DNA of 64,000 bases, from the NCBI GenBank assembly GCA_964348135.1, contig CAYGBL010000002.1, positions 41,048 through 105,047 on the forward strand, in the 5' to 3' direction. Below, in pieces: positions 12,353-63,768 of this stretch. A program made the translations under genes and the position numbers. The stretch is from an uncultured Actinomycetota bacterium (GTDB lineage Bacteria; Actinomycetota; Aquicultoria; JACQXZ01; CAYGBL01). The first letter of the stretch is position 1. The number at the start of each line of letters is the position of its first letter. The notes under the pieces are model-generated. The model was not told where the DNA came from. It searched no databases and was given only the letters and a program-made list of their open reading frames with translations.

Positions 12353-12384
12353 AGTAATTTTTCTCTATCTATTCAAAAGAGTCT

Positions 12385-18625: not shown

Positions 18626-18631
18626 CTATTC

Positions 18632-22427: not shown

Positions 22428-22440
22428 GTCACTTCCTCAA

Positions 22441-25943: not shown

Positions 25944-26060
25944 TGCGGGCACTTTCTAAGCTAAGTACCATGAAAATTTTGAACAGAGCTTGTATAATTC
26001 ACTACTTGATCACTCCCAAGTTTTTTTGAAAAAAAAATAGATAAAAGAGAATAGAATAAA

Positions 26061-28420: not shown

Positions 28421-29382
28421 GAATCTCTGTCATTATACCCACCTGTAACCGAAAAGAGATCCTTGGACGAACACTAAACGCTCTAAACAAACAGCACTAT
28501 CCTCAAGATGAATACGAGGTAATAATTGTTGATGATGGCAGTACTGATGGAACTTTAACCCACGTCTTGCAGCTGGCTCCAAAGTTGCATACTAAAATCA
28601 TCCTTCTGCAACAAAAACAGCAGGGACCAGCAGCAGCAAGGAACTTGGCTATTAAAGAAGCTAATGGAGAAATTTTACTATTCCTAAATGATGACACGGT
28701 TGCCGCTCCTGACCTCCTTCAGCAACATATGAAATTGCATGAAAAAGAACCGGATCTCAGAAATGGCGTCTTGGGCCGCGTAGTCTGGTCACCGGACATC
28801 AAGATTACCCCTTTTATGTATTGGCTGGAACACGGAGGTCCTCAATTTAAATACGATGAGATTAGGCAAGGAGAGATTAGCTGGCGCTACTTCTGGACTT
28901 GTAATCTTTCCCTTAAGCGGTACTTTCTTATTCAAAACGGCGTATTCGATGAAGACTTTCCTTATGCTGCCTGGGAAGATATAGAGTTAGGTTATAGATT
29001 GAGCAAATGCGGCCTGAAACTCCTCTATAACGAAGCTGCAGTCGGCTACCACTACCACAATATCACTCTGGAATCAGCAAAGGAAAAGATGCTGCTACAC
29101 GGCTGGAGTGCGACTATAATGGACAGAAAGGTTCCTCACGAAGCAAAACCATCCTCCCTCAAATATCCCTATAAACAGATTATTAGAACGTTAGATAATA
29201 TTCTGCTTTGCAAACCTACAATGTTCCTATTCTGGAGATTATCCAGGATAGCAGAAGATCGTGTCGCTCTAGGTTTTTTATTCAACCTAGTCACTTTACA
29301 TTACCGTATAGAAGGTCAAAGAAAAGCAGAGCTTGCCTTTAAAAAGAGAGAGCGAGGAGATAATGAAAGTCGTTGTAGCTAA
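28417..29382 (+). CDS. Family 2 glycosyltransferase
   Basis: The motifs are ISVIIPTCNR, VIIVDDGSTDGT and NDD. Confidence 0.8.
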   Translation: MRISVIIPTCNRKEILGRTLNALNKQHYPQDEYEVIIVDDGSTDGTLTHVLQLAPKLHTKIILLQQKQQGPAAARNLAIKEANGEILLFLNDDTVAAPDLLQQHMKLHEKEPDLRNGVLGRVVWSPDIKITPFMYWLEHGGPQFKYDEIRQGEISWRYFWTCNLSLKRYFLIQNGVFDEDFPYAAWEDIELGYRLSKCGLKLLYNEAAVGYHYHNITLESAKEKMLLHGWSATIMDRKVPHEAKPSSLKYPYKQIIRTLDNILLCKPTMFLFWRLSRIAEDRVALGFLFNLVTLHYRIEGQRKAELAFKKRERGDNESRCS

Positions 29383-30787
29383 CTCAGTAGGTAAAGATGC
29401 TAAAGGTAACCACTTCATCCATTTTCCCAGTCGCTGGACTGCCTGTGTAGGTAGGATTAAAGATTTTACCTATTATCCCTACGAGTTGGCTTACCTTTCT
29501 TCCCTTCTGAAGAAACGAACCAACCTGAAAGTGAAAATGGTAGATGGGAATCTTCTTCAGCTTAATGCTGAAGAATATTTTGATCTTCTGCTCAAAGAAG
29601 AACCGGATTGGCTGATTATGGAAACTTCAACGGCTGTCTACTCCGAGGATTTAAAACTTGCTTCCGCCATAAAAAGGCATTTGGGAACAAAGATCATCTT
29701 TACCGGTCAGCATCCCACTGCCTTCCCCCAAGAAGTCTTAGCCGACGGTGTGGATTTCGTATGCAGAGGAGAGTATGAGTTAACCGTACTTGCTCTTCTA
29801 CAAGGGAAAGATCCCAGAATTATAAAGGGTCTATATCCCAACCCGTCTGGAAATCTAGTAGATCTCAATCAATTACCTCTACCAGAGGACAAGGATATTT
29901 CACGCTTAAATTATGCTGGTATCAGTGGATGCGATTATAAAGAAATTGAGCTTTTTGCTTCTCGGGGCTGCCCTCTCTCCTGTATATTTTGCGTCTGCGG
30001 AAATCTATATTACAATCGGCCAAACTGGCGTCCCAGAAACATCAATGAAATTATCTCCGAAATCAATTATTTAAAAGAGCGATACCCGGAAATGGAAGGA
30101 ATATTTTTTGATGAGGAACAACACAATGGAAACAAACAGTTTGTTCATGTTCTCTCTGAAGAAATAGTCAAACACAAGCTAAATAGACTGAAATTCAGCG
30201 CAATGTGTAACTATTGGAACCTTGATGCTGAAATACTAAGATCGATGAAACAAGCAGGCTATTATAAACTTCGAATTGGAATCGAAACAGCAAGCATAAA
30301 AGTAGCTGACACAATACGTAAACCAATTAACATCCAAAAACTAAAAGAAGTGCTAAGAGAAGCCAAGAAAGCTGGAATTCGTATGTATGGAACTTTCATT
30401 TTTGGAGCTCCAGGATCTAGCAGAGAAGAAGATACCAAAACTATTCGTCTCCTATACCAATTGATTACGGAGAATCTACTTTCAGATTTTCAGTCATCCA
30501 TCTGCGTACCTCAACCAGGTACACCCTTCTACCAATGGGCAGAGGAAAACGGTTATCTGACTACTAAAGATTGGCGGAAGTACGATGGTTATAGGGCAGT
30601 CGTCAGCTATCCTCACTACCCAAAAGAAGCAATCGAGGAAATCTTCCAACTAAGCTGGCGTGTATGCGCAGCTAAGAGGATCAAACGCCTACCAGAGATT
30701 CCATATCTTGTGGCCAATCGATTGAAGAGATATGGTTTCTCACAGACAGCACGGGATATATTTAGAACGCTGCGAACTCACTTTTAA
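29363..30787 (+). CDS. B12-binding-domain radical SAM protein (class B), canonical CX3CX2C
   Basis: The cluster motif SRGCPLSCIFC is canonical. An SD site (GAGCGAGGAGA) lies before the ATG at 29363. It is a paralogue of the gene at 26061-27446. Confidence 0.75.
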   Translation: MKVVVANSVGKDAKGNHFIHFPSRWTACVGRIKDFTYYPYELAYLSSLLKKRTNLKVKMVDGNLLQLNAEEYFDLLLKEEPDWLIMETSTAVYSEDLKLASAIKRHLGTKIIFTGQHPTAFPQEVLADGVDFVCRGEYELTVLALLQGKDPRIIKGLYPNPSGNLVDLNQLPLPEDKDISRLNYAGISGCDYKEIELFASRGCPLSCIFCVCGNLYYNRPNWRPRNINEIISEINYLKERYPEMEGIFFDEEQHNGNKQFVHVLSEEIVKHKLNRLKFSAMCNYWNLDAEILRSMKQAGYYKLRIGIETASIKVADTIRKPINIQKLKEVLREAKKAGIRMYGTFIFGAPGSSREEDTKTIRLLYQLITENLLSDFQSSICVPQPGTPFYQWAEENGYLTTKDWRKYDGYRAVVSYPHYPKEAIEEIFQLSWRVCAAKRIKRLPEIPYLVANRLKRYGFSQTARDIFRTLRTHF

Positions 30788-40189: not shown

Positions 40190-40539
40190 ACTCGCACACC
40201 TCTCTTATTGTTGGATTACTATATAAAAATACCGGCCAATTAGGCCGGTATCACTTCTGACTCCTTATAATCCAAAGTGACCTAGTCAGGATTATAATTC
40301 TTCGTCTCCACCAAGGTTTTCTTTGAAAAGTGGTGTTTAATAAAGAGGAGTTTTTGCTATAAGGCTTATTTATGGAATTGTAGGAAATTCTTGGGCTTAA
40401 GACTCTTTATATATTTACCCAAAAGCAATTATAAGCAATCAAAGATACTAAAGCAAGTTAAAATTTACCTGCCATTTAAAAATAAAACGGCTCTAGAGCC
40501 GTATGGAATAATTTGGTAATATGTTATTCAGTTTGTTAT

Positions 40540-40767
40540 TTACCGCTTCTTCACCCTGATACTTCTCTTTCCCCCTATGATGTAAATAAAACCCAGTCCT
40601 GTCCTTGTCTTCATTTTTTCTCTTCTAGACTCCAACCGGACAAATACAAGAATAACGAGTAGTATGAAAATAGCTGTTGCGAACCAATAGACAAAGGATA
40701 ATTCTACTCCCGTGGCTACCATACTATTCCAAAAGGAAAGTGTGACATTCCAGAAATTCGTCATCAT
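40540..40767 (-). CDS. Small 2-TM membrane protein (hypothetical)
   Basis: An SD site (GGGAGAATA) lies before the ATGATG start. A downstream terminator on the minus strand (ACGGCTCTAGAGCCGT followed by TTTATTTTT) sits at about 40478-40502. Confidence 0.45.
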   Translation of the reverse strand: MMTNFWNVTLSFWNSMVATGVELSFVYWFATAIFILLVILVFVRLESRREKMKTRTGLGFIYIIGGKRSIRVKKR

Positions 40768-41573
40768 TATTCTCCCAGGATTCCGTCTCTGAAAATTATC
40801 GGAACAAAGATGTTGCACTTAAGGTAAAATCTGCAAGATGTACAGTGAAAAAGTGGTTATGTGGAAAGCAAGTTTAAGTTTGACGTAGACTACTTTTGGA
40901 GATTGTTGTAAGTATTTAGGAAGTCTAAGTAATCCGTAATCCGTAATCCCGGGTATTCATTAAGTAAATTTTAACAAATGTGCTTTAGTATATATGACCA
41001 TTAATATGCGGACCATATTGTAACATTAATTATCTTCAATATTTTAATTAACTTGTTCTTTAGAAGATCGGCCACTCTTCTTTTCTTACATTGCCAGGTA
41101 CATCATCTTTAAATGGACTAATAAGTAGCAAATTTGCACACAATAGCAATAAAAATGTAAACTATTTTTCTGTCCGCAGCTGCAACTGTAAATCTTTTAT
41201 ACTGATCTAAGGTAAGTGTTAATGATCCGATATCAAGCTTTAAACCAAGAACAATCAAAATCATTATATTTTGCACAGCCCAATGGCAACATGGCTGAGT
41301 TTAAAAATATGCAAACATATACAAGACATGTGCTTGTTCAATTAAGTTATTTTAAATGAACATCACGTCTATCTTCTTTAAATTGATAATTTGAGGATTT
41401 AACTCGACATTTGATAATTTATGAAACGGAAGCGTCTTGTTAAATGCGGAAATAACTACTAGAAGTAATCTTGCTGATATTTTTGAACAATTGATAAGTT
41501 GAGTATGTGTAATGTATTCTAGACAATATATTTTAAAATCTTGTATAATCCCATCCATATAATATCTAAACAG

Positions 41574-44243
41574 CTAGCCAGATGCTGCTGAAGATACCTT
41601 TGCTTCTTTTCTGCTAAAGATGAACTTCCCATCTTCTACATTTACTTCTATAAAATCTCCCTCTTTAAATTCTCCCTTCAGTAATTTCAAGGCTAGTGAG
41701 TCTTGAATATTTTTCTGTATTACTCTTTTAAGAGGCCTAGCTCCGAATACAGGATCATAACCTTTCTCTGCTAGTAGCTTCCCAGCTGCTCTTGTTAAGG
41801 TTAAGGTAAGTCTCCGCTTAGCTAAGGAAGTTTTTAGATAGTCAACCTGTATATCTACAATCCTCTCAATTACCTCTTTAGTTAACACACGGAAAATTAT
41901 AATTTCATCAATCCTATTGAGAAACTCTGGCCGAAAAGACTTTCTTAGCTCCTCCATAACCTTTTCTTTCATCTGCTCATAACTTATTTTTTCTTCACGC
42001 AAAGCAGGACCAAACCCCAGTAGAAGAGTCCTGTTTATATACTGGGTTCCAATATTTGAGGTCATGATAATTAAAGTATTTCTAAAGTCGACTGTTCGAC
42101 CGTGTCCATCAGTTAATCTACCATCATCAAGAACCTGTAATAAAATATTGAATACATCAGGAGCAGCTTTCTCAATCTCGTCCAAAAGAATTACCGAATA
42201 GGGTCTTCTTCTTACAGCCTCTGTCAACTGGCCTCCTTCTTCATATCCTACATATCCCGGAGGAGCCCCAATCAAACGCGCTACTGTATGTTTCTCCATA
42301 TACTCGCTCATATCCAACCTAATCATTGCCTTCTCATCATCAAAGAGGAATTCTGCCAATGATCTAGCTAGTTCTGTTTTCCCTACGCCTGTTGGTCCTA
42401 AAAAGATAAATGAACCAATAGGTCGATTCGGATCTTGTAGGCCAGCCCGAGCTCTTCTGACAGCATTAGACACGAGTGTAATAGCTTCGTCTTGACCCAC
42501 TACTCTCTCCTTAAGCCGTTCTTCCATATGTACAAGCTTCTCCAGTTCGCCTTCCATCAATCTCGTCACTGGAATCCCTGTCCATTTTGAGACTACTTCG
42601 GCAATATCTTCTTCATCCACCTCTTCTTTAAGCATTTTTTCATCCTTCTGAATTTTACTAAGCTGTCGATTTTGCTGATCCAATTTTTTTTCCAAATCTA
42701 TGAGTTCGCCATAGCGAATTCGAGCAACTTTGTCCAAATCACCTTCACGCTCTGCTTTTTGTTCTTCGGCCTTCGCTTTTTCTATCTTTTCCTTGAACTC
42801 TCTTATCGTCTTTATAGTTTCTTTTTCTTTAATCCAGTGGGCTTTCATCTTTTCGCTTTGTTTTCCTAAGCTTTCTAAAGTTTTTTCTAATTTCTGCAGT
42901 TGCTCCTGAGAGGTTTTATCTTTTTCCTTTTTGAGAGCCTGTCTCTCAACCTCTAGCTGCTTAATCCTTCTTTCAATCTCATCAATTTCTGTAGGCATAC
43001 TGTCTATCTCTATGCGCAATCTGGAAGCTGCTTCATCAATTAGATCGATAGCCTTATCTGGAAGAAAGCGATCAGATATATATCGAGTGGAAAGTGTTGA
43101 AGCAGCAACCAGAGCCGTATCTTGAATACGAACTCCATGATGAATTTCGTAGCGCTCTTTTATCCCCCTGAGAATAGCAATTGTATCTTCAATAGATGGT
43201 TCTCTAACAATTATGGGCTGGAATCGTCTTTCTAAAGCAGCATCCTTCTCAACATATTTGCGATATTCATTCAAAGTAGTTGCTCCTACTGCTCTTAATT
43301 CGCCTCGAGCAAGCATCGGTTTTAACATGCTTGCCGCATCAACAGCACCTTCAGCAGCACCCGCACCTACTATCGTATGAAGTTCATCTATGAAAATAAT
43401 TATCTCTCCTTCAGCCTTTTTAATTTCACGAAGAACTGCTTTTAGTCTCTCTTCAAATTCACCGCGGAACTTTGTTCCAGCAATTAAGGAACCAATATCA
43501 AGTGCTATTACTTTTTTATTCTTCAAACTCTCTGGCACATCTCCGCTCACTATCCGCTGTGCCAGTCCTTCAACTATAGCTGTTTTACCTACTCCTGGAT
43601 CACCAATTAATACAGGATTGTTTTTTGTTCTTCTAGACAAAACTTGAATTACACGTCTAATTTCACTATCTCGACCCACTACTGGGTCTAACTGGTTTCG
43701 ACGTGCCAAATCAGTAAGATCTCTTCCATATCGCTCTAGAGCTTGGTATTTTTCTTCCGGATTAGGATCTGTCACTCGCTGTCCTCCTCTTACCTCTAGA
43801 AGAACTTTGTAGATACTATCTTTGTTTACTCCTTTTCTTTTTAGCAGTTCTGAGGCAGGTCCTCCCTCTTCGCAAATTGCAATTAGCAAATGTTCAACAC
43901 TTACGTATTCGTCTTTGAAATTTTCTGCTTCTGTACTGGCAAGCTCAAATACTCGTCTTACCCTAGAACTGGCATACGTTTCTCCGACTGCACCATAGAC
44001 CTTGGGCAGCTTTTTAATCTCTTCTTTTAGTTCCCTAGACAGTTCCTCCTTGTTTACATTCAACCTCTCTAAGATGGAAGCAGCGATTCCTTCTGTGTGT
44101 TGTAAAAGTCCAGCTAGCAGATGTTCTACTTCTATCTGTTGCTGATTATAATTTGCAGTCAATCTCTGAGCTTGAGCTATAGCCTCTCTCGCTCGCTCTG
44201 TAAATTTATCCCATAGCATTTCCTTCAACTCCCTATCACTCAA
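41574..44243 (-). CDS. clpB: ATP-dependent chaperone ClpB
   Basis: Two AAA+ modules ([17 protein letters not shown] and [19 protein letters not shown]) flank a long coiled-coil middle domain. The start may be the internal Met at 44219, which has a strong SD site (GGGAGTTGAAGGAA). Confidence 0.9.
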
Positions 44244-44634
44244 TAGGAACCTTTATAATCCCACTGGAGCGCACTTTTTCAATTTTTGGAGAAAGACGTC
44301 TATGAAGAGAAGAAATTTGAGCTTCTAATTCTCCGCGTATATCCTCAAATTCGTGCTCCATATTGTTTATCAGATTTCGCATATCCTTAATCTTCTCTCG
44401 TAGTTCAATAATCATCTTAACCCCAGCTAAGTTTATTCCCTCTTCATGGGTCAGCTCCTGAATGGCTTTCAATCTCTCTATATCTTCGTCCGAGTAGAGG
44501 CGTCTCTTATTCGCAGACCTTTTAGGATGAAGCAATCCTCTCCTCTCATAGATTCGCAGCGTTTGAGGATGGCAGTCAGCTAACTGAGCCGCGACACTAA
44601 TTATATAAACGGGCCGCTTATTATCCCTTGCCAT
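44236..44634 (-). CDS. hspR: MerR-family heat-shock repressor HspR
   Basis: [38 protein letters not shown] is a MerR-type HTH. The gene sits directly after dnaJ, as in the actinobacterial dnaK-grpE-dnaJ-hspR operon. Confidence 0.8.
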
Positions 44635-44636
44635 TT

Positions 44637-45761
44637 TTATCCCTTCTTCCTCTGTGCAATATAATTGGAGATCTCCGTTCGAGGATCCCTCTGGTTAAGT
44701 TGGGCAAATTCACTTAATACCTCTCTCTCTTTTCTTCCCAGTTTTGTAGGTACTACAATCTGAGCGGTAACATACATATTACCCTTTCTATTGGTCCTAG
44801 GCTCTGGTACTCCTCTACCACTCAAACGAAATACCTGTCCACTTTGCGTTCCAGACGGAACCTTCAGTGAGAGTGCTCCATCTAATGTAGGTATCTCAAC
44901 TTTTGTCCCTAAGGCAGCTTCACTGAATGTAAGGGGAAGATCAAGATATAAATCACTACCTAGTCGCTTAAACAGAGGATGCTCGCTTATTTTGGTGACA
45001 ATGTAAAGATCTCCTGAGGGTCCTCCTCGGAAACCAGCTTCACCTTCACCCTTAATCTTTATCTTTGACCCATTATCAACACCTGCCGGAATCCTGACAT
45101 TTATCTTCTTAGTCTCCGGAGCCCTTCCAGTACCCCGACAGTTAGCACACGGATTATCAATTATAGTACCTCGCCCAAGGCAACGATTGCAGGTCGTGCT
45201 CAAGCTGAAAAAGCCCTGATTCTGAGCAACAAATCCTGTGCCATTGCAGTGTGGGCATACCCGTGAAGAAGTGCCTGGTTTGGCTCCCGTACCATTACAT
45301 TTAGGACAGGTTGTTTCTTTGGTAATGTTAAGTTTAGTAGTGGCTCCACGAGCAGCATCTTCAAAAGAAAGGTTAAGTTGATAATAAATATCCTTGCCTC
45401 TCTCTGCAGCACTAGTGCCAGAACGGGATCTACCCATAAAAATGTCAAATATATCTCCAAACCCACCAAGATCCGTGAATACATCTTCAAAGCCAGTGGA
45501 CTTAAAGCCTCGGAATCCCTGAGTTCCATATGCTCCAGCTCCAAACATAGAAGTCATTTGGTCATACTCTGCTCTCTTTTTTTGATCTCCTAAAACTTCA
45601 TAAGCCTGCGATATCTCTTTGAACTTCTCTTCTGTCTCTTTACCACTGGGATTAGCATCTGGATGATATTTCCGAGCCAACTTCCGATAAGCATCTTTTA
45701 TTTCCTTTTGACTGGCTTTTTTAGAAACACCAAGTATCTCGTACAAATCTTTTCCGTTCAT
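44637..45761 (-). CDS. dnaJ: Chaperone DnaJ
   Basis: It has a J-domain (YEILGV...KLARKYHPD), a G/F-rich region and four CxxCxGxG zinc-finger repeats. Confidence 0.9.
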
Positions 45762-45934
45762 TTAAGTCACCCAATAAGAGTCAATTAAAGTCATGCTGAA
45801 TTTAACTAACTATTAATTTAAGATAAAAGCCATAAGCTAAGCCTAAATCTGAATCTTGCATTCCAATTGCCTTGAGAACTCAATTCTCTACCAGAAACAT
45901 TCTATCAGCTCAGTTCACTCATTCTACAAATATT

Positions 45935-46501
45935 CTATTTCTTAGCGACCTTTACCATTGCAGGTCTTATAACTCTGCCCTTGAAAGTATAACCCTGCCT
46001 TAAAACGTCAACTACTGTGTTGTCAGCATATTCATCACTATGAACCTTCATAACTGCCTCATGCACCTGGGGATCAAACTCCTTACCAATGGCTTCAATC
46101 ACTTTCAATCCCTCATGGTGAAGCATATCCTTCAGTTCACCATAAACCATCTCAATTCCCTTTACCAGTTTATCAAAGTCTTTGCTGTTTTCAGCTGCTA
46201 TGAGAGCCAACTCAAAATTGTCTACAATGGGTAAAAGTTTACTTATTAAATCTTGAGCTGCTAATTCCAAAAATTGCGTTTGCTCCCTTAAGAGTCTTTT
46301 TTTGTAATTCTCAAACTCTGCTTTCAATCTCTTTAAATGGTCTAAATATTCTGCAGCTTCAGCTTTCTTTACTTCTAAATCCTTTCTTAACTTTTCCAGT
46401 TCATTTTTTGATATCCCTATTTTCTCCTCAGCCTCTTCTTCTACTTTAGCTTCTTCTTTCCGTTCCTGCTTGTCTTCATCTTCTGGCTTCTTACCAACCA
46501 C
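45935..46501 (-). CDS. grpE: Nucleotide exchange factor GrpE
   Basis: An acidic, coiled-coil N-terminus is followed by FENYKKR and a C-terminal beta domain. Confidence 0.85.
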   Translation of the reverse strand: MVGKKPEDEDKQERKEEAKVEEEAEEKIGISKNELEKLRKDLEVKKAEAAEYLDHLKRLKAEFENYKKRLLREQTQFLELAAQDLISKLLPIVDNFELALIAAENSKDFDKLVKGIEMVYGELKDMLHHEGLKVIEAIGKEFDPQVHEAVMKVHSDEYADNTVVDVLRQGYTFKGRVIRPAMVKVAKK

Positions 46502-46582
46502 TATTTAACACCCCCTATTCATTTCAAAAAAATATTTCCTCGGGAAGGGATACTCCTCTAACACCCTTTAAATGTTAACTTT

Positions 46583-47032
46583 TTAACTTTCGCCTGATTC
46601 AACAGCTACCTTTACTCGCTTGGTCTCAACTTCCTTAGCTGTAGGCATTCTAATTTCTAGAACTCCCTCTTTAAAAGTAGCTTTTGCTTTATTTTTTTGG
46701 ATAGATGCTGGTAGTGGTACTGCTCTTTCAAAAGTACCGTAACGTCTCTCTAACCTGTAGTAATTTTCCTCTTTTGCTTCTTTAAAAAACTTTCTCTCTC
46801 CTTTGATAGTTAGCATATCCTCATCTACAGTAATATCTATATCTTTAGCTGTAAGACCTGGTAATTCTGCTTTAACTACTATCTCCTTGTCAGATTCATA
46901 CATGTCTACAGCTGGTGACCATACTCCCCGAGCAAAGCGCTCCCATTCACCTGAAGTACGGCCAAAAAATCTGCCAAGTTCATCAGGGAGACTAAGCAAA
47001 TCTCTCCATGGATCCCACTTAATTATTGCCAT
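46583..47032 (-). CDS. Hsp20/alpha-crystallin small heat-shock protein
   Basis: It contains an alpha-crystallin domain. An SD site (AAGGAGG) lies before the ATG that encodes MAIIKWDPW. Confidence 0.8.
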   Translation of the reverse strand: MAIIKWDPWRDLLSLPDELGRFFGRTSGEWERFARGVWSPAVDMYESDKEIVVKAELPGLTAKDIDITVDEDMLTIKGERKFFKEAKEENYYRLERRYGTFERAVPLPASIQKNKAKATFKEGVLEIRMPTAKEVETKRVKVAVESGES

Positions 47033-47098
47033 CTTTAACACCTCCTTACGGTAATTCTCACAAGATATTCCCTTCCCGCATTACTTCAATTTCCGTCT

Positions 47099-48958
47099 TT
47101 ATTTCTGCTGCTCATCTTGATCCTCATCAACAACCTCAGCGTCAACTACTCCTTCCTCATCACCTTTTTCTTGAGTCTCACTTTTTTCTCCAGAACCTTC
47201 AGCTTTCTTCTGCGCATAGAGAACTTCAGCTAGACGGTGAGATAACTGCACTAGTTTCTCACTTGCTTGCTTTATTCGTTCAACATCAATCCCTTTCAAA
47301 GCTTCCTTTACTTCACTTACTGCTTTTTCAATTTCATCCTTTTCGGAGGCGCTTATTTTATCTCCTACCTCTTTAATTGACCTTTCAGTAGAATAAACCA
47401 GATTGTCTGCATTGTTACGAATTTCAGCGTCTTCTCTTCTCTTATGGTCTTCTTCTGCATGTGTTTCTGCTTCCTTTATCATCCGGTTAATCTCATCCTC
47501 ACCTAAAGCCGTAGATCCTGTAATAGTCATACTCTGTTCTTTTCTAGTACCCAAATCCTTTGCAGAGACGTGAACAATACCATTAGCATCTATGTCAAAG
47601 GCAACCTCAATCTGAGGAATACCTCTGGGTGCTGATGGAATACCTACCAGTTGAAAACGGCCTAGGGTCTTATTATAGGCAGCCATCTCTCTCTCACCCT
47701 GTAACACATGAATCTCTACACTAGTCTGATTATCTTCAGCGGTAGAAAAGATTTCACTCTTCTTAGTAGGTATAGTGGTATTTCTATCAATTAGTTTAGT
47801 AAAGATGCCACCTTTAGTCTCGATACCTAAGGTAAGAGGAGTAACATCCAAAAGTAAAACCTCTTTAACCTCGCCTTTGAGTACACCCGCTTGAATGGCC
47901 GCTCCTACAGCTACAACTTCATCAGGATTCACACCCCTATGGGGCTCCTTTCCACCAGTAAGTTTCCGTACCAAATCCTGCACTGCTGGCATTCTGGTAG
48001 CACCACCAACCAGTATTACATGCTCAATATCTTTAGGTTCAAGACCCGCATCTTTCATAGCTTGATTAAATGGTTCAATACATTTTTCTAAAAGATCTGC
48101 AGTCATTTTGTTCAGTTCTGATCTGGAAAGAGCCATATCAAGATGAAGAGGCCCTTCTGCGGTCGCAGTTATAAAGGGTAAATTAATATTAGTCGTAGTA
48201 ACAGTAGAAAGCTCACATTTAGCTTTCTCTGCAGCCTCTTGCAACCTTTGATGAGCCATGCGGTCTTTCCGTAAGTCTACTCCATATTTTGCTTTGAAAT
48301 CATCCGCCATCCAGTCAACAATTTTCTGGTCCCAATCATCTCCACCAAGATGGGTATTTCCGCTTGTTGCTTTTACATCAAAAACGCTAGGTTCATCTCC
48401 TTTGCCTGGTTCGATCTCAAGAATTGAAACATCAAAAGTGCCTCCGCCTAAGTCGAAAACGAGAACTGTCTGTTCATTCTCCTCCTCCAAACCATAAGCA
48501 AGAGTAGCTGCCGTCGGCTCATTAATAATACGGAGAACATTCAAGCCTGCAATCTGTCCGGCTTCCTTAGTCGCAGTTCTCTGAGCATCATCAAAATAGG
48601 CTGGTACAGTTACAACTGCATCAGTAATTTTTTCACCTAAATAGTCTTCTGCACTCTGCCTCATCTTTTGTAAAACCATGGCTGAAATTTCTTGCGGCAT
48701 ATATTCCTTGTCATCTATCTTTATCTTATCCTTTGTGCCCATTTTCCTTTTTATTGAGCGAATGGTCCGCTCAGGATTGGTTATGGCCTGCCTTTTAGCC
48801 ACTTCCCCTACTAACCGCTCTCCAGTTTTACTAAAAGCAACAACAGACGGAGTTATCCTCCCTCCTTCCGCACTGGGAATTACAACAGGTTCTCCACCCT
48901 CCAGGACAGCAACACAAGAGTTTGTAGTCCCTAAATCAATACCTACTGCTCTTGCCAT
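47099..48958 (-). CDS. dnaK: Chaperone DnaK (Hsp70)
   Basis: The key motifs are [13 protein letters not shown] and [10 protein letters not shown], and the match runs the full length. An SD site (AAGGAG) lies 8 nt before the ATG that encodes MARAVG. Confidence 0.95.
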
Positions 48959-49009
48959 TTTCTTCACTCCTTCAGATTTAATAACATGCTTATACTGTAT
49001 ATAATATAT

Positions 49010-49034
49010 AAGTTGATAATATTATTGTCAAGTT
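49010..49034 (-). promoter_or_regulatory. dnaK operon promoter (TTGACA-17-TATATT on minus strand) overlapped by a HAIR-like inverted repeat (TTGA-N11-TCAA), candidate HspR operator
   Basis: The minus-strand sequence is AACTTGACAATAATATTATCAACTTATATATT. The -35 and -10 hexamers are near consensus, and the TTGA-N11-TCAA spacing matches the HAIR core. Confidence 0.45.
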
Positions 49035-49284
49035 ATTTATATTTAATATTCGTAAGATACCCAAAATATTAAAATTTAAACATGGGAATGCTTAAAAAGT
49101 GGGTTGTTATTAAAAGAAGAGTTCAATCTTTGATGGAACTTGTTACAAAGCTTGAATAGAGGCTAGAAGTCTATAAAATCCTGGCTCACGTTGGATTATC
49201 TATATTAGCATGAATCCCTCACCCATAAGCACTTTTTGCCTCTCCTTATAGTCTATTCCTTTTCAAATAAACACCTATTATACC

Positions 49285-50808
49285 TTAATGCATACACTCA
49301 AAGGGACTGCAAGTAGCATTACGATAGAGTTTTGCCTCATACAAAGATTCATCAGCCTGTTTAACTAATTGCTCCTTATTGGTTGCGGTAAGAGGATATG
49401 TGGCAATGCCCAAACTTATTGTAAGCTGAATGGGTTTACTATCCCTTCTCCGTCCCCTGAATACCGTTTCTTCTACTATAAGACGCAGTTTGCAGGCAAC
49501 AGTGAAAGCATCTTCGTACTTAACTTGGGGCAGAAGAACCACAAATTCCTCGCCACCATATCTGGCAACCAAATCCTCTTCCCTTGTCCGATTTTGCAGC
49601 AATCTCGCAAGATGTCTTAATACCTCATCTCCTCTTATATGACCATAGCGATCATTTATCTCTTTGAAAAAGTCGATATCTATAATTATCAAACTGACGG
49701 GGATTTTATTTTTCTCACCATTAGCTATTACTTTAACCAATTCCTGTGAAAAATAACGGTAATTGTACAGACCGGTTAAACCATCCCGAATTGCTGACTG
49801 TTCAGTCTCTTTATAACGGTTGGCATTCTCAAGCGCATTATTAGCTTGGGAAGTTACCCCTTCTAAAAACCTCAAATCTTCGTACGTAAAACCATAAGGT
49901 TTCTGCTTTGTAGCAATAATTACTCCTCTTACCTTCCCATTATTAAAAAGAGGAGCAGCAATTATTGACCTTGCGTTACCCGTAAGACACACCATGGCAG
50001 GATCTTCCTTTGCATCAGAGATGTAGATTGATTGATTATGTTTTACCACCCAACCTATCGCTGTATAATTATTCTCAATTTTAATCTCCCTTAACTCATT
50101 CTCATTCACCCCAGAAGATGCTTTTATAGCAAGGCTGTTGCCATTACCTAACATTAAGGCACAGGAGTCTGGAGAAATCCTCCGCTTTATAATCTCTAAT
50201 ACTTTGTTTGCAACTTCATCAAGCTGAAGACTACCAGTTATCACCTTTCCGCTTTCATAAAGACGATCAAGGTGTATATTTATGGTATACATCCGATTTA
50301 TTAAAATGCCTATTAAAATGCCAACCAGAACCATAAAAACAACCTGGACAGTATTCTGCCGCATCAGATCACTAGAGAGGCCAATGCTTTTAAATATAAA
50401 AGTATACATGACTGCTGCCGCAATTGCTGTGGACGTGCTTAATTTAACGCCTCCTCTTACTGCAGCCAGAATTATAGGGAAATATACAATGGAAAGGTAA
50501 GAGGGAATATACAAGCGTGATGTTAGTATGAATACTGCCGTAAGAGCAAGGGCTATGCTGACTGTTATCAGGTTACGTATAAATACCGAGTTGGTATAGT
50601 AATAAATTACTCGTGAGATCAAACCGCCATCAGTTAAATCCCAGTGTATGACCCCTAAAAAAATCGCCAAACCATAAAGCATAAGAAGATTTTTAACGGG
50701 AAGTTTTAGCGAGGAAATTCCAACTAAGAGTAGAACTACTAAAATGATAACGACTAGTTTACTTTGATTCTGTTTCATGATTAAATCCACAATTGTAAAA
50801 TCTAACAA
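49285..50808 (-). CDS. Membrane-bound diguanylate cyclase (multi-TM, GAF, GGDEF with intact GGEEF)
   Basis: The motifs are RYGGEEFVV and the upstream I-site-like RGDE. About six N-terminal TM helices are present. Confidence 0.8.
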   Translation of the reverse strand: MLDFTIVDLIMKQNQSKLVVIILVVLLLVGISSLKLPVKNLLMLYGLAIFLGVIHWDLTDGGLISRVIYYYTNSVFIRNLITVSIALALTAVFILTSRLYIPSYLSIVYFPIILAAVRGGVKLSTSTAIAAAVMYTFIFKSIGLSSDLMRQNTVQVVFMVLVGILIGILINRMYTINIHLDRLYESGKVITGSLQLDEVANKVLEIIKRRISPDSCALMLGNGNSLAIKASSGVNENELREIKIENNYTAIGWVVKHNQSIYISDAKEDPAMVCLTGNARSIIAAPLFNNGKVRGVIIATKQKPYGFTYEDLRFLEGVTSQANNALENANRYKETEQSAIRDGLTGLYNYRYFSQELVKVIANGEKNKIPVSLIIIDIDFFKEINDRYGHIRGDEVLRHLARLLQNRTREEDLVARYGGEEFVVLLPQVKYEDAFTVACKLRLIVEETVFRGRRRDSKPIQLTISLGIATYPLTATNKEQLVKQADESLYEAKLYRNATCSPFECMH

Positions 50809-50883: not shown

Positions 50884-51558
50884 TTGCAGAAACAAAGGAG
50901 GTGTGTGTTGCAGACAGCGAAGCCAGTATTATATGGCACCACAAGTTCCAGCAATCGTCCAAACTACCAAAAGATGTCAGATGATTTACTGGTGAGGCTA
51001 GCACAGAGAGGTGATGAAAACGCTCAAAACTTCTTGATCAATAAGTACGAATATCTAGTTCACTTCAAAGCCAGATCGTACTTTCTCCACGGAGCCGATC
51101 ACGATGATACCATCCAGGAAGGAATGATCGGACTCTACAAGGCCATCAGAGATTACCGCAACACTAAGTTATGCTCCTTCCGTTCTTTTGCTCTCTTATG
51201 CATTACCCGCCAAATAATTACTGCAGTTAAAACTGCTACTCGGAAAAAACATTCCCCTCTTAACAGTTATGCATCCCTAAATGCTAATGTCTTTGACGAG
51301 GATGCGGGAAGCACTTTGCTTGATGTTATGACAAGTTCAAGGGCAGAGGATCCACTTGATCTCTTTATCGTGGAAGAAGAGATCGATAATATCAGAAGAG
51401 TAATGAAGGATGTTTTGAGCGAGCTGGAATGGAATGTCCTGGTTGCTTATATAGATGGAAAAAGCTATCAGGAAATAGCCAACCAGCTAAACAAGCATAC
51501 CAAAGTGATTGACAATGCGCTATATCGAGTTAAGTTGAAACTCAAGGAATTGAGGTAG
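50884..51558 (+). CDS. sigH: RNA polymerase sigma factor SigH (sigma-70 family, Spo0H-like)
   Basis: ARSYFLHGADHDDTIQEGMIGLYKAIRDY...SFALLCITRQIITAVKTATRKKHSPLNSYASL aligns closely with Bacillus SigH. The real start is probably GTG or TTG at 50905 or 50908, after the SD site AAAGGAGG. Confidence 0.9.
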   Translation: MQKQRRCVLQTAKPVLYGTTSSSNRPNYQKMSDDLLVRLAQRGDENAQNFLINKYEYLVHFKARSYFLHGADHDDTIQEGMIGLYKAIRDYRNTKLCSFRSFALLCITRQIITAVKTATRKKHSPLNSYASLNANVFDEDAGSTLLDVMTSSRAEDPLDLFIVEEEIDNIRRVMKDVLSELEWNVLVAYIDGKSYQEIANQLNKHTKVIDNALYRVKLKLKELR

Positions 51559-52012: not shown

Positions 52013-52992
52013 ATGAAGGAAAACAAAAAAAATGAATCTCCACTAGATGCCTATTCGAAGGCTGTAGTAGATGTTGCCGAAAGAGTAAGTCCTTCCGTAG
52101 TCAATATAAGTGTTACTGTTAAAATGCAGACTCCTATTTACTCTCCTGGGATAAGGCAGGAGACAACAGGAAGCGGATCAGGAACTATTGTTGCGCCTGA
52201 TGGCTTTATTCTCACTAATAGCCATGTTGTCCATAATGGTACTAGGATAAGAGTTACTTTAAACGATGGTAGTACTTTCAGTGCTCAATTAATGGGTGAA
52301 GACCCTGCAACAGACTTAGCAGTACTAAGAATAAACGCTTCAGGACTTCCCACAGTGGAGATGGGTAACTCTGACACTTTAAAGGTGGGACAGCTTGTTA
52401 TTGCTATTGGAAATCATCTAGGATTTCAAACCACGTTACCACTGGTGTTATAAGCGCGCTTGGTCGATCCTTAAGAACGGAAAGCGGTCGTTTAATTGAA
52501 AATATAATTCAAACTGATGCAGCTCTGAATCCGGGTAGCTCTGGTGGCCCGCTTGTAGATAGCAAAGGTATAGTAATTGGTATAAATACTGCAATTATTC
52601 GTCCAGCACAAGGTATTTGCTTTGCTATCCCTATAAATACAGCTCGCTTGGTCACGGGTCTCCTTATTACCAAAGGTAAAGTTGAAAGAGGATTCCTAGG
52701 AATCTCTGGACAGCGTCGTCCTATTCACAGAAAGCTAGTTATTGCCCACAAGCTTCTATCGGACCAAGGTGTTTTTGTAATTCAAGTAACGCCAAACAGC
52801 CCAGCTGAGAAAGCAGGGCTTAGAGTACGGGATATGATTATTGCTTCAAACGATACTTCTATAGGAAGCATCGACGACCTTCACAGGCTTTTGACAGAAA
52901 AACCTAATAACCAGCCCATGTCCCTTACGATCCTGAGAAGATCACAGAAAATAATACTCGAAGTACTACCCTCTCCAGCTGAAATTGGGTAA
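52013..52992 (+). pseudogene. htrA: HtrA/DegP-family serine protease with PDZ domain, interrupted by a -1 frameshift near 52428-52440
   Basis: Frame 1 carries the His and Asp catalytic regions (TNSHVV and DLAVL). After GFQTT the homology continues in another frame (TTGVISALGRS...NPGSSGGPLVD...PDZ) through 52992. A single base is missing within ACCAC-GTTACC. Confidence 0.7.
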
Positions 52993-59862: not shown

Positions 59863-59879
59863 TATGCAGACAAACCAAT

Positions 59880-60100
59880 ATCCGTTAGGTGAGGCAACTG
59901 CTTGAACATAGGCCACTGCCCGGAAATGTCTAAAGACGCCAATGGGTAGAACAGGTATTACCGGCTTAAGGTTTTACCTAAAGTGGCTCCCCACCAGAGT
60001 TGGGGTTACGTCATGTAGTGTCAAAGCTAAACGAGGGAGGAAGATAAAACAAAATATTACTTATCCTTAACCTTTCCTCGGAAAGGTTTTCTTTTTGTAA
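59880..60100 (+). promoter_or_regulatory. M-box (ykoK leader) Mg2+ riboswitch with intrinsic terminator expression platform
   Basis: GTTAGGTGAGGC...CTGCCC..AAATGTCTAAAGACGCCAATGGGT..AACAG...TAAGGT...AGTG.CAAAGCTAAACGA matches the conserved M-box blocks of the B. subtilis mgtE leader. A terminator (CCTTTCC-TC-GGAAAGG plus TTTTCTTTTTG) lies at 60071-60097, just before the mgtE SD site. Confidence 0.85.
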
Positions 60101-60113
60101 GGAGGTGAAAATA

Positions 60114-61916
60114 ATGCGTGTTTACTTGACCCAATTGCTAAATAAGCCCGTTTTTGATTGCGAAGCCAGGTTTCTTGGAAAGATAAGCGATATAGCCGTA
60201 ACCACTGGCGAGATCTTTCCCCGAGCATCCAGTATAGCTCTTGCTAAGGATAAAGAACCTTTTATGCTTTCCTGGACCTTTGTTAAAGCATTCGATGCCG
60301 AACATATTGAGCTAAGTGCGAAGCAAAACGAGCTCAAACTCACTTTTTTACAGCCTAATGAAATTCTTCTTAGCCGTGACCTTCTAGATAAACAAATAGT
60401 AGATACACAAGGATTAAAGGTCGTAAGAGTTAATGATCTTAAGCTTACTCAAAGCGATAGTGAGCTTCGTCTTTTAGGTGCTGATGTTGGAGCTAGGGGA
60501 GTCCTGAGACGTTTGGGGCTAGAGAGGGCAGTTGATTTTCTGTCAAGACCGTTCAGATTTAGGCTTCCTGAAAATTTGATAGCCTGGAATTATATAGACC
60601 TTCTGGAAAAGGATTTATCAGCGGTTAAGCTCTCCGTCAGCCATAAAAGATTAAATGAACTCCATCCTGCTGACATTGCTGACATTCTAATTCAGCTTGA
60701 TCAGGTACAAAGAACCAAAGTTTTCCAATATCTTGACAATATCAGGGCCGCTGATGCCATTACAGAGAGTGAACCCGATCTCCAGAGTAGCTTGTTTGAA
60801 AGTTTAGACAATGAACGCGCTTCTGACATCTTGGAGGTTATGCCTCCTGATGACGCTGCTGATATTATCGCCGGGCTTCCCTATGAAAAGGCTCAGATTC
60901 TGTTAAATCTGATGGGAGTAAAAGAGGCTTCAGACATTCGCAAACTGCTTGGATATAAAGAAAATACAGCAGGTGGAATCATGACTACCGACTATATTAC
61001 AACCAAAAATAGTCAAACTGTTGAGGACACAATAAAAAGATTAAGAAGCTTAGCTCCTGACCCTGAAACAGTATCATATGTATATGTGGTAGATGACAAC
61101 AATGTACTAACTGGAGTTCTTCCTTTAAGAGACCTTGTAATGGCTTCAGCTGAGACTCGGGTAAGTGCAATTATGATTCCAGAAATTATTAAAGTAAGTG
61201 TAGACGATGATCAGGAAGAGGTAGCTAACAAGATTAGCAAATATGACCTATTGGCAGTCCCAGTGGTCGACGAACAAGAACACCTTATGGGAATAGTAAC
61301 TGTTGACGACGTACTGGAAGTTATGGAAAAAGAGAGTGTAGAAGACATCTCGATTCTAGCTGGAACACCCTCTCTTGCTCTCAAAACAAAACCAGCGGTT
61401 TCCCTAATCCAGCGCTCCGGGTGGTTAGTTATTCTTCTATTGGCTGGCGCCATCACCGGCACTATTCTCAAAGCATATTCACAGCTTCTTCAGTCTATGA
61501 TAGCCCTTGCTTTCTTCATTCCTTTAATTATCCGTCTTGGCGACGATATAAGCATCCAATCCATTGCGCTTATGCTTCAGGCGATAAAGACGGGAGAGGT
61601 TAACCGGTACCAGATTTTAAAGAAAACACTCGGTGATATAGAAGTTGGAGTCTTTATCGGCGTTATTTCAGGAATAGTAGTTTGGGTGCTCACTCTTCTG
61701 TGGAAACTCCGCCCTGATTTAGGTGCAATAATCGGTGTATCTTTAGCAGTAACCGCAGCCTGTGCTTCAATTATTGGCACACTGATTCCAATTATCCTGA
61801 ACAGATTTAACATTGACCCATCCTCCAACTGGGGCCCGGCAATCACTACTTTTGTAGGAGCACTAGGTCTCTTAATTTATTTAGGAATTGCAGCACTCTT
61901 TCAATATAGTTTCTAG
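60114..61916 (+). CDS. mgtE: Magnesium transporter MgtE with N-terminal PRC-barrel-like extension
   Basis: The SD site AAGGAGG lies 8 nt before the ATG. The sequence has MgtE_N and tandem CBS domains (VYVVDDNNVLTGVLPLRDLV, LLAVPVVDEQEHLMGIVTVDDV) and five C-terminal TM helices. An extra roughly 150-aa N-terminus resembles the PRC-barrel proteins in this window. Confidence 0.85.
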   Translation: MRVYLTQLLNKPVFDCEARFLGKISDIAVTTGEIFPRASSIALAKDKEPFMLSWTFVKAFDAEHIELSAKQNELKLTFLQPNEILLSRDLLDKQIVDTQGLKVVRVNDLKLTQSDSELRLLGADVGARGVLRRLGLERAVDFLSRPFRFRLPENLIAWNYIDLLEKDLSAVKLSVSHKRLNELHPADIADILIQLDQVQRTKVFQYLDNIRAADAITESEPDLQSSLFESLDNERASDILEVMPPDDAADIIAGLPYEKAQILLNLMGVKEASDIRKLLGYKENTAGGIMTTDYITTKNSQTVEDTIKRLRSLAPDPETVSYVYVVDDNNVLTGVLPLRDLVMASAETRVSAIMIPEIIKVSVDDDQEEVANKISKYDLLAVPVVDEQEHLMGIVTVDDVLEVMEKESVEDISILAGTPSLALKTKPAVSLIQRSGWLVILLLAGAITGTILKAYSQLLQSMIALAFFIPLIIRLGDDISIQSIALMLQAIKTGEVNRYQILKKTLGDIEVGVFIGVISGIVVWVLTLLWKLRPDLGAIIGVSLAVTAACASIIGTLIPIILNRFNIDPSSNWGPAITTFVGALGLLIYLGIAALFQYSF

Positions 61917-61925
61917 GAGTGAACG

Positions 61926-63180: not shown

Positions 63181-63768
63181 ATGCGTTTTACTGAAAAACT
63201 TATTAGGCTTCCTATCTTCGACAATCAGAACGACCGTATAGGCCATGTACACGACCTAGGAATTCAAAGGTCCCCAGGCTACCCCAAAATAAACTGCTTG
63301 GCTATAATGCTTTATGAAGTAGAAAATATTGCCGGCTACACGCTTTTAGAAGCTGCTCAAAATATTGTAGTAGCAGTAAGCTGGGAAGAAGTGGCCAAAC
63401 TTACCTCAGAAGACCTACTGCTTAAGAAACCTTGGAATAAAACCAAGCTTTATACGTGGAGCAAGGAAGAAGTCTTTTTGGGTAGAGACCTTCTTAACGT
63501 CCAGGTCGTAGATAATAAGGGATACCGGATACAACGTGTCGATGATCTTATCTTAGAGCTAAGGGACACTAACCTCTTCCTCGCAGGTATCTACACAGGA
63601 GTGGGAAGCAGACTCTCCCGCTTTAATCTGGCAAAAGCCAGTGAACATCTATTAAAGACCTTTGACATTAAGATTCATGAACATTTAATACCGTGGACCT
63701 CAGTTAAAACTTACGGCCCTGAATATGACGAGATAACGCTAAATGTGGGAGTCAAAGAAAGGAAATGA
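63181..63768 (+). CDS. PRC-barrel-like hypothetical protein
   Basis: DLLNVQVVDNKGYRIQRVDDLIL resembles the mgtE N-terminal segment LLDKQIVDTQGLKVVRVNDLKL. Confidence 0.5.
   Translation: MRFTEKLIRLPIFDNQNDRIGHVHDLGIQRSPGYPKINCLAIMLYEVENIAGYTLLEAAQNIVVAVSWEEVAKLTSEDLLLKKPWNKTKLYTWSKEEVFLGRDLLNVQVVDNKGYRIQRVDDLILELRDTNLFLAGIYTGVGSRLSRFNLAKASEHLLKTFDIKIHEHLIPWTSVKTYGPEYDEITLNVGVKERK

Follow-up and report, generated by a model that had tools for sequence, protein, structure and literature searches.

Actinomycetota normally place dnaK under the repressor HspR and its operator HAIR rather than under HrcA and CIRCE (PMC8223512). HspR, for which DnaK serves as co-repressor, represses the dnaK operon, clpB and acr2, a gene of the Hsp20 family; groE is controlled by HrcA (PMC8223512). 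[quoted passage not shown] The locus analyzed here lies in a 64,000-nucleotide stretch of DNA, the whole of which we call the window, and is an ordinary actinobacterial-type chaperone operon with its own repressor gene and a predicted repressor site over its promoter. Very probably it forms a single HspR-regulated heat-shock super-operon, with one promoter and a HAIR-like operator, in an early-branching actinobacterium of low GC content (40%).

Profile searches with NCBIfam and Pfam models identify six minus-strand genes at 41574-48958, in the order dnaK-hsp20-grpE-dnaJ-hspR-clpB, downstream of one near-consensus promoter (Table 1). An earlier reading of the DNA made without database searches, here called the sequence-only reading, had proposed this order, and the family models confirm all six genes on that strand. 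The dnaK ATG stands 6 nt past a GGAGTG ribosome-binding site, within which falls the GTG of the longest ORF (48967). Relatives also keep the arrangement of hspR, which shares its strand with dnaJ and starts 2 nt past the stop of that gene; the called start of clpB (44219) follows the hspR stop by 16 nt, and its longest ORF (start 44243) shares 8 nt with hspR. Upstream of dnaK, the neighbouring gene encodes a GAF-GGDEF protein.

Table 1. Genes and predicted regulatory elements of the chaperone operon, with positions in the window
Feature	Position	Strand	Evidence and remarks
Predicted HAIR-like HspR operator CTTGACA-ATAATAT-TATCAAC	49012-49032	-	top matrix match; register common to relatives
-35 hexamer TTGACA	49026-49031	-	promoter scan; kept in relatives
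-10 hexamer TATATT	49003-49008	-	17-nt spacer from -35
dnaK	47099-48958	-	619 aa; NF001413, 959.8 bits; identical protein on record at 619 aa
hsp20, small heat-shock protein	46583-47032/47041	-	PF00011 HSP20, 75.2 bits; L001 gene call is 149 aa from 47032
grpE	45935-46501	-	188 aa; NF010738, 164.8 bits (cutoff 137)
dnaJ	44637-45761	-	374 aa; TIGR02349, 421.4 bits; separated from grpE by a 173-nt gap
hspR, MerR-family heat-shock repressor	44236-44634	-	132 aa; NF047375 HeatShock_HspR equivalog, 119.8 bits (cutoff 105)
clpB disaggregase	41574-44219/44243	-	TIGR03346, 1374 bits (cutoff 1232); L001 gene call

The repressor carries a MerR_1 domain at residues 11-77 (PF13411, 74.7 bits). Among solved structures, two MerR-family proteins, GlnR and TnrA, come nearest to it, and no solved structure of HspR was found for comparison. 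The placement of hspR downstream of dnaJ inside the dnaK operon implies autoregulatory wiring; together with the score above the HspR model cutoff, it supports the earlier view of an HspR-type, self-regulated chaperone operon. For comparison we used the best 80 HspR loci from genome representatives, with relatives at 41-65% identity among the matches listed. In 7 of 68 such genome-representative loci, again among the matches listed, hsp20 directly precedes grpE; in 37 of 72, the start of clpB lies no more than 1 kb past hspR. The full six-gene order recurs in at least six Actinomycetota MAGs: L009 (Ca. Subteraquimicrobiales), L047, L038, L045, L055 and L084. A metagenome scan with the HspR protein as its only query returned no relative. 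A DNA pattern specific to the clade and based on the C-terminal motif LHRxxSPKIEK retrieved five loci, a single one of which (L096) is a true relative, and this lacks the dnaK promoter. Our literature search found no paper citing runs ERR2564001 and ERR2564004, which contain the sequence.

We infer that the six genes are transcribed together. An unlikely alternative divides them into two or more transcription units, with a promoter in the gap between grpE and dnaJ driving dnaJ-hspR-clpB and leaving hspR and clpB outside the dnaK operator. The gap is indeed unusually long and is retained in relatives (approximately 180-245 nt in L003, L005, L006 and L089), but its sequence is not conserved (50% column identity) and its fold is no better than that of shuffled sequence (z = -0.08). 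Weak promoter-like matches do occur within the operon; the gap itself contains no promoter match of at least 9/12, no terminator-like site and no HAIR-like site. A regulatory element in the gap was also considered and rejected on the same grounds of conservation and folding.

Judged by its sequence, TTGACA-17-TATATT is a promoter of the housekeeping-sigma type. It matches 11/12 consensus positions and is the best promoter-like site within 40800-49400; our promoter scan thus recovers the consensus promoter named earlier. The -35 hexamer and the spacer are covered by a 19-nt palindrome, TTGAcAATAaTATTaTCAA, and the string quoted in the sequence-only reading, AACTTGACAATAATATTATCAACTT, is found exactly at 49034-49010. 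The left arm of the operator includes the -35 hexamer, while the right arm stops 3 nt short of the -10. In TTGAcAATAaTATTaTCAA, the core of that string, 8/9 positions pair, and the window holds no other match to it even with three mismatches allowed. The core spacing TTGA-N11-TCAA, previously described with divergent inner positions, is exact: the dnaK site agrees with the consensus of its own clade, CTTGACA-N7-ACTCAAG, at 11/14 positions and with canonical HAIR, CTTGAGT-N7-ACTCAAG, at 9/14, and therefore goes undetected as the latter at up to three mismatches. At that threshold, no canonical HAIR is located at a promoter anywhere in the window.

The operator is the top-scoring 21-mer (18.1 bits, the next reaching 13.4) of approximately 128,000 window positions under a matrix of 23 relatives' dnaK-upstream sites, which were chosen by eye and anchored on TTGACA, with the window site excluded. 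The matrix leaves aside 40 of 63 relatives' upstream regions, mostly from Solirubrobacterales, where no such site was seen within 260 nt of the estimated start codon. The window contains no further credible HspR site: the next-best matches do not exceed 13.4 bits, fall within coding regions (42930-42950 in clpB, for example) and were rejected as chance. With up to three mismatches allowed, the degenerate palindrome is matched 1.3 times in shuffled sequence, so the palindrome alone is not rare, and its significance comes instead from the conservation of its position in relatives. The exact TTGA-N11-TCAA core is present in 11 of 63 relatives' dnaK upstream regions, against 0.12 expected from shuffles, and a stack of 24 promoters aligns the arms in a fixed register directly upstream of the -10. 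CTTGACA-N7-ACTCAAG occupies this register in L005, L041, L090 and in the three closest DnaK relatives (L098, L099 and L100, 80% identity), and L072 displays a canonical HAIR, ATTGAGT-N7-ACTCAAG, at the same place. The TATCAA arm also arises independently in L091 and L067, and sister lineages have ACTTAGA at the place of ACTCAAG. The relatives' register and the matrix rank back the earlier proposal of a HAIR-like operator over the dnaK promoter, to which HspR is predicted to bind.

A chance AT-rich symmetry beside a good -35, with HspR acting elsewhere or another factor (e.g. an alternative sigma) dominating, appears quite improbable. Palindromes are common in AT-rich promoters, and many AT palindromes do lie near this one, with seven other inverted repeats within 350 nt. 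The shuffle count fits such a reading, as do the replacement of ACTCAAG by ACTTAGA in sister lineages and the right arm, which is weak by itself (1.3% of window 7-mers score equally well). Against this reading, TCAA occupies the exact register of the relatives' ACTCAAG, within a promoter spacer region for which we know of no sigma-70 sequence requirement. Moreover, the window offers no better HAIR-like site, and alternative control points are lacking: no conserved internal element is apparent, and the 5' UTR, which folds worse than its shuffles (z = +1.2), shows neither an RNA thermometer nor a leader structure. Comparison with its counterparts in relatives makes the palindrome most likely a HAIR site that has drifted and that serves the HspR encoded in the same operon.

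The sequence-only reading had reported CIRCE (TTAGCACTC-N9-GAGTGCTAA) to be absent upstream of dnaK; at up to three mismatches the element is absent from the entire window, and across 102 loci CIRCE-like sites (up to four mismatches) never lie upstream of dnaK, occurring only elsewhere. The search for hrcA that it had also suggested, run within the window, found none among the ORFs that were compared with family models, all of them 150 aa or longer; this set leaves out an overlapping ORF of 210 aa and another of 195 aa at 63181-63768.

The same reading had assigned the operon to a Firmicutes-like genome. This is not supported by the relatives of the locus, and the evidence points to a low-GC, early-branching actinobacterial host rather than a Firmicute. 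All named members of the top 120 DnaK relatives are Actinomycetota (72-77% identity), among them Ca. Subteraquimicrobiales, Ca. Geothermincolia, Ca. Solincola and Ca. Anoxymicrobiaceae, and none is named Bacillota. The best 80 HspR loci are nearly all labelled Actinomycetota as well, apart from one from Armatimonadota, two from Acidobacteriota and a few named only 'bacterium'. The actinobacterial relatives of DnaK and HspR include the basal classes Aquicultoria and Geothermincolia. Synteny with the Actinomycetota-labelled NCBI MAGs L047, L089 and L090, and also with L005, spans approximately 20 kb of genes flanking the operon; it runs approximately 11 kb past clpB and includes the sigma factor upstream of dnaK. 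The syntenic Actinomycetota MAGs, too, have hsp20 inserted and clpB linked to hspR. Since this synteny continues on both sides, the operon is not an island, and its GC skew and GC content are the same as those of its surroundings. The GC content of relatives ranges from low to medium (37-57%, with 37% in L090). The window contains no universal marker gene, and the phylum call therefore rests on named relatives and synteny. The UPF0210 gene (1102-2469) was rejected as a taxonomic marker because its matches level off at 63-66% identity whether they come from Bacillota, Actinomycetota, Desulfobacteria or archaea; its best named match is a 'Firmicutes bacterium', with which an Actinomycetota match ties at 64%. 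WhiB-like motifs are an actinobacterial hallmark; none is found in the six-frame translations of the window, which is uninformative for the phylum.

Two further features of the window are a gene for a Spo0H (SigH)-type sigma factor that adjoins the operon (NF006148, 294.6 bits vs cutoff 208) and an M-box riboswitch. A sigma factor of this type is usually a Bacillota trait, but it does not decide the phylum here, because a 78% identical counterpart stands beside dnaK in L090, an 'Actinobacteria bacterium' MAG at NCBI. A Bacillota host in which an HspR/HAIR module replaced HrcA/CIRCE at dnaK, for example through transfer of the operon from an actinobacterium, is very unlikely: the 40% GC, the sigma factor above the NCBIfam SigH cutoffs, the riboswitch and the best named UPF0210 match would suit it, but it is contradicted by the synteny with Actinomycetota MAGs on both flanks, the counterpart sigma factor in L090, the named DnaK matches and the uniform GC skew and content. 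The operon seemed odd because a low-GC early-branching actinobacterium was taken for a Firmicute. The impression is understandable given the sigma factor and the riboswitch, and also given that similarity tools are known to mis-score basal Actinobacteria genomes as Firmicutes; HspR is listed in one such genome, the contigs of which were largely scored as Firmicutes (PMC7325909).

For the actinobacterial HspR operon we propose the following circuit. An HspR dimer would bind CTTGACA-N7-TATCAAC, covering the -35 hexamer and the entire spacer, which would exclude RNA polymerase at normal temperature and place hspR itself under repression. By analogy with Streptomyces and Mycobacterium, DnaK would act as the co-repressor. 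Heat-denatured proteins would titrate DnaK, HspR would leave the DNA, and the six genes would be induced at the same time; when DnaK became available again, the circuit would switch off. The right arm has drifted from ACTCAAG to TATCAAC, whereas the recognition helix of HspR has not changed: relatives invariably carry HPQTLRIYE, whatever the operator variant. The site is probably the same operator in a weaker form, or in one read by shape, and does not represent a new specificity. We searched the helix-turn-helix of relatives for a specificity change following the operator variant and found none.

A broader and much more tentative proposal, which we regard as unlikely, is that basal low-GC Actinomycetota run the HspR circuit through operators with drifted right arms (TATCAAC in this window; ACTTAGA elsewhere, for instance in Ca. 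Subteraquimicrobiales), leaving the helix unchanged and retaining a Spo0H-type sigma factor beside the operon. If true, this would imply half-site-plus-shape recognition in which the -35 hexamer doubles as the fixed arm and, together with the sigma factor, regulation that stands partway between that of Bacillota and that of classical Actinomycetota. The locus has little bearing on heat-shock biology: it adds a basal actinobacterial lineage, uncultured and low in GC, to those with the textbook circuit of HspR and HAIR, and it gathers the Hsp70 system, ClpB and Hsp20, the three classical classes of HspR target, in a single self-regulated operon. Its practical value is that of a caution: a genome should not be classed as a Firmicute on low GC and a handful of Firmicutes-looking genes, and a seemingly misplaced gene order should first be checked against the real relatives of the host. 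The operator variants ACTCAAG, TATCAA and ACTTAGA, facing an invariant HspR helix, may represent a small natural dataset on HspR-DNA recognition.

Among described systems, the HrcA/CIRCE circuit of Bacillota (hrcA-grpE-dnaK-dnaJ) resembles the proposed one as a negative-feedback heat-shock circuit in which a chaperone controls repressor activity, but gene order and repressor family differ, and the window has neither hrcA nor CIRCE. In Helicobacter pylori and Campylobacter jejuni, an HspR orthologue likewise acts on a degenerate AT-rich HAIR-like repeat, where spacer and shape readout matter (PMC6102357); there, however, hspR belongs to a cbpA-hspR operon, HspR acts with HrcA on dnaK, and its operators span 70-80 bp, often far upstream. 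In Mycobacterium tuberculosis (dnaK-grpE-dnaJ-hspR, clpB, acr2), HspR governs the target classes that are also represented here, namely the Hsp70 system, ClpB and a protein of the Hsp20 family (PMC8223512), but as separate transcription units where a single unit is predicted for our locus; the M. tuberculosis regulon also features SigH/SigE promoters and proteasomal turnover of HspR. The HspR-HAIR regulon of S. coelicolor and S. albus (dnaK-grpE-dnaJ-hspR, clpB, lon) shares the core order dnaK-grpE-dnaJ-hspR, a MerR-type HspR passing the equivalog model, the autoregulatory circuit that we propose here, and an inverted repeat with TTGA...TCAA arms 11 nt apart overlapping the promoter. By contrast, clpB and hsp20, which have their own HAIR promoters in Streptomyces, are joined to the operon here, one operator takes the place of three, the genome has 40% GC, the left arm, CTTGACA in place of CTTGAGT, is the -35 itself, and drift has given the right arm the sequence TATCAAC. 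A further parallel is offered by the six Actinomycetota MAG loci named above, which combine the identical six-gene order with the same promoter-operator architecture, although their proteins are only 42-66% identical and their right arms read ACTTAGA, GCTCAAG or ACTCAGG.

Family models from NCBIfam and Pfam assign the six minus-strand genes to DnaK, an Hsp20-family small heat-shock protein, GrpE, DnaJ, HspR and ClpB. HspR is a 132-aa MerR-family protein that scores 119.8 bits against the HspR equivalog NF047375 (cutoff 105). dnaK and hsp20 are 57-66 nt apart, hsp20 and grpE 81 nt, and dnaJ and hspR 2 nt; clpB starts 16 nt past hspR or overlaps it, leaving the 173 nt between grpE and dnaJ as the sole long intergenic gap. 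The dnaK ATG lies 6 nt past a GGAGTG ribosome-binding site and agrees with the recorded gene call for an identical protein, and the gene upstream encodes a GAF-GGDEF protein, not hrcA. Exact copies of the proteins occur in one NCBI contig (172,756 bp) and in two sequencing runs; no publication was found to cite the runs. The dnaK promoter (TTGACA, 17-nt spacer, TATATT), with its -35 hexamer 70 nt before the start codon, matches 11 of 12 consensus positions and is the top promoter-like site within 40800-49400. The palindrome core TTGAcAATAaTATTaTCAA overlapping it has 8 of its 9 positions paired and occurs once in the window; with the tolerance unchanged, however, shuffled sequence yields about one hit, which makes the palindrome weak evidence by itself. 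CIRCE, the HrcA-bound element, is absent from the whole 64 kb with up to three mismatches allowed, and no promoter of the window carries a canonical HAIR, the inverted repeat bound by HspR. The family models, the promoter scan, the exact position of the quoted string and the motif scans bear out the sequence-only reading in every part of what it had observed: the six-gene order, the promoter, the palindrome and the lack of CIRCE.

Positions of features in the window and, in the last two rows, in loci of relatives
Feature	Position	Strand	Remarks
Cyclic-di-GMP signalling gene	4100-5461		Weak or degenerate EAL protein
Cyclic-di-GMP signalling gene	8673-10040		GGDEF-EAL protein
Large cell-surface polysaccharide cluster	11765-30787		Exosortase-like EpsH protein; XrtG-associated glycosyltransferase (TIGR03111, below cutoff); several GT2/GT4 glycosyltransferases; FemAB-like acyltransferase; polysaccharide deacetylase; UDP-GlcNAc 2-epimerase; two B12-binding radical SAM enzymes
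Block shared with relative L047	30.8-36.3 kb		gltA-like, DHOD-B-type Fe-S subunit, BcrAD/BadFG ATPase, two DUF2229 genes
AT-rich stretch 3' of clpB	40190-41573		1.4 kb, about 34% GC; protein-family support for none of the ORFs tested
(GGATTAC)x3 short tandem repeat	near 40935-40957	-	Inside the AT-rich stretch
dnaK-hsp20-grpE-dnaJ-hspR-clpB	41574-48958	-	dnaK ATG at 48958
-10 hexamer	49008-49003	-	TATATT
Top-ranking operator site	49012-49032		18.1 bits
String quoted in the sequence-only reading	49034-49010	-	Exact match
-35 hexamer	49031-49026	-	TTGACA
Cyclic-di-GMP signalling gene	49285-50808		GAF-GGDEF protein, immediately 5' of the dnaK promoter
Sigma factor gene	50884-51558	+	Adjoins the dnaK operon
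HtrA-like serine protease	52013-52992	+	Trypsin and PDZ domains; two ORFs, break near 52434
M-box (ykoK) magnesium riboswitch	59874-60045	+	136.8 bits; directly 5' of the MgtE gene
MgtE transporter gene	60105-63170	+	N-terminal extension of ~170 aa; Nramp-family transporter gene next
CIRCE-like inverted repeat, L010	2666-2692		TTGGCACTC-N9-GAGTGCCAA
CIRCE-like inverted repeat, L022	4499-4525		CTGGCACTC-N9-GAGTGCCAG

The two CIRCE-like repeats of relatives each lie a short way past hspR, after a B-box zinc-finger ORF, and are followed by SurE (L010) or a zinc-ribbon and SurE pair (L022), with no chaperone genes.

Comparison of 260 nt upstream of dnaK in 63 loci (62 relatives and the window) supports the proposed operator. 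Eleven of these regions, that of the window among them, contain an exact TTGA-N11-TCAA, where shuffling leads one to expect 0.12. When 24 promoters are aligned on the -35 hexamer, a common layout emerges: cTTGACA-N7-aCTCAag with a TATAAT-like -10 lying 2-4 nt further on. Among DnaK relatives, the closest three (L098, L099 and L100, 80% identity) carry CTTGACA-N7-ACTCAAG, which agrees at 12 of 14 positions with the HAIR consensus CTTGAGT-N7-ACTCAAG (PMC6102357); L072 has ATTGAGT-N7-ACTCAAG at the same position (13 of 14), and the operators of L005, L090 and L041 resemble that of the closest relatives. In the window operator, CTTGACA-ATAATAT-TATCAAC, the left arm is preserved and the right arm still contains TCAA; L091 and L067 also have the TATCAA form. 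Yet another right-arm form, ACTTAGA, replaces ACTCAAG in L101/L102 (Ca. Subteraquimicrobiales), L047, L026, L036 and L017, all Actinomycetota, with register and HspR recognition helix unchanged. A position-weight matrix trained on 23 relatives' sites, chosen by eye and scoring 11.0 to 27.8 bits, with the window left out, ranks the proposed site first of all window positions on both strands; the runner-up, inside clpB, reaches 13.4 bits. In forty loci, mostly Solirubrobacterales, no such site was seen within 260 nt upstream of the estimated dnaK start. Sigma-70-type promoters set no sequence requirement on their spacer, so conservation of TCAA there suggests that a factor binds it, and the factor known for this motif is HspR. 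All operator variants go with one unchanged HspR helix-turn-helix (HPQTLRIYE included), and the window's right arm is therefore read as drift within a single HspR specificity, not as a new one. The earlier guess at a HAIR-like operator was most likely right: relatives keep HAIR-type arms in the same register, and the matrix singles out the site.

The premise of a Firmicutes host fares differently. The window holds one tRNA and the riboswitch, and lacks rRNA and ribosomal protein genes, so the phylum call leans on relatives. Among the best 120 DnaK relatives (72-80% identity), the named ones (72-77%) are all Actinomycetota, including Ca. Subteraquimicrobiales (class Ca. Aquicultoria), Ca. Geothermincolia, Ca. 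Solincola and Ca. Anoxymicrobiaceae; of the best 80 HspR loci listed, from species-representative genomes, nearly all belong to Actinomycetota MAGs, with Thermoleophilia, Coriobacteriia, Acidimicrobiia and Ca. Subteraquimicrobiales among them. The resemblance extends to flanking genes. In L047 ('Actinomycetes bacterium DS4.bin103') the five genes directly past clpB correspond to a window block, with relative order kept and 51-70% amino acid identity, and the same DUF2229 pair follows clpB in L089 ('Actinomycetota bacterium'). L090 ('Actinobacteria bacterium', GCA_016208465.1) has the window's sigma factor on the upstream side of dnaK, with genes for ApbE and a CAP-domain protein on the downstream side. 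L005 is syntenic on both flanks; its GAF-GGDEF gene, also upstream of dnaK, is separated from it by a UDG gene. The L005 orthologue of the HtrA-like protease is intact (326 aa); in the window one base is missing (ACG TTA against the ACG GTT implied by relatives, frame +2 to +1), which reflects a faulty assembly or else a pseudogene of recent origin.

The sigma factor beside the operon is a counter-signal to an Actinomycetota host. It exceeds equivalog cutoffs for sporulation SigH/Spo0H in NF006148 (294.6 bits, cutoff 208) and NF006145 (269.4, cutoff 212) and falls slightly under TIGR02859 (277.4, cutoff 294.8). Such a factor is usually a Bacillota trait, yet this one is conserved beside dnaK in L005 (87% identity), the Actinomycetota-labelled L090 (78%) and L091/L092 (59%); a putative Spo0H-type factor in Actinomycetota is unexpected, and our literature search found no paper on one. 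The second counter-signal, a UPF0210 gene 45 kb away with equally good Bacillota, Actinomycetota and archaeal matches (63-66%), is uninformative; no WhiB motif was found in the window, and metagenome scans gave nothing of use. GC content is 37% in L090 and 45-57% in most close relatives checked, making low GC a trait of the lineage. The basal classes to which these relatives belong have been described (PMC10746217), and for one such genome (48.5% GC, HspR present) a similarity classifier placed contigs in Firmicutes more often than in Actinobacteria (PMC7325909). The host is very probably a basal low-GC actinobacterium in which the operon is native, judging from relatives and synteny.

The operon's seemingly unusual features also recur there. 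In the loci retrieved, the usual order is dnaK-grpE-dnaJ-hspR; among genome-representative loci, hsp20 directly precedes grpE in 7 of 68 and clpB starts within 1 kb past hspR in 37 of 72. Both occur in six named Actinomycetota MAGs (L009, L038, L045, L047, L055 and L084), and the hsp20 insertion also in close relatives L005, L091, L098, L100 and L101. By this comparison of loci, the two features are lineage traits.

The operon has a single strong promoter whose -35 hexamer and spacer are covered by a putative HAIR-type operator, and it contains the gene for the repressor. Other control points were found neither in the 5' leader, which is unstructured (z = +1.2), nor in the grpE-dnaJ gap, whose sequence is not conserved and folds no better than shuffled, nor between genes, where terminator-like sites are lacking. 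No experimental structure of an HspR was found in the PDB. By analogy with Streptomyces and Mycobacterium (PMC8223512, PMC6102357), an HspR dimer would occlude the promoter with DnaK as co-repressor; heat-damaged proteins would titrate DnaK, release HspR and induce the operon, which would later be shut off again.

The sequence-only reading was accurate in description and most likely correct about the operator, while its surprise rested on an unsupported host; the locus is an unremarkable further case of the HspR/HAIR regulon known from actinobacteria, here in an uncultured lineage of low GC. Since groE is under HrcA/CIRCE in Streptomyces and Mycobacterium, this genome is expected to have an hrcA at another place, which would be compatible with control by HspR. 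In those bacteria clpB and the Hsp20-family gene acr2 are HspR targets too (PMC8223512, PMC6102357); the same three classes of HspR target appear in the window, where they would share one transcript.
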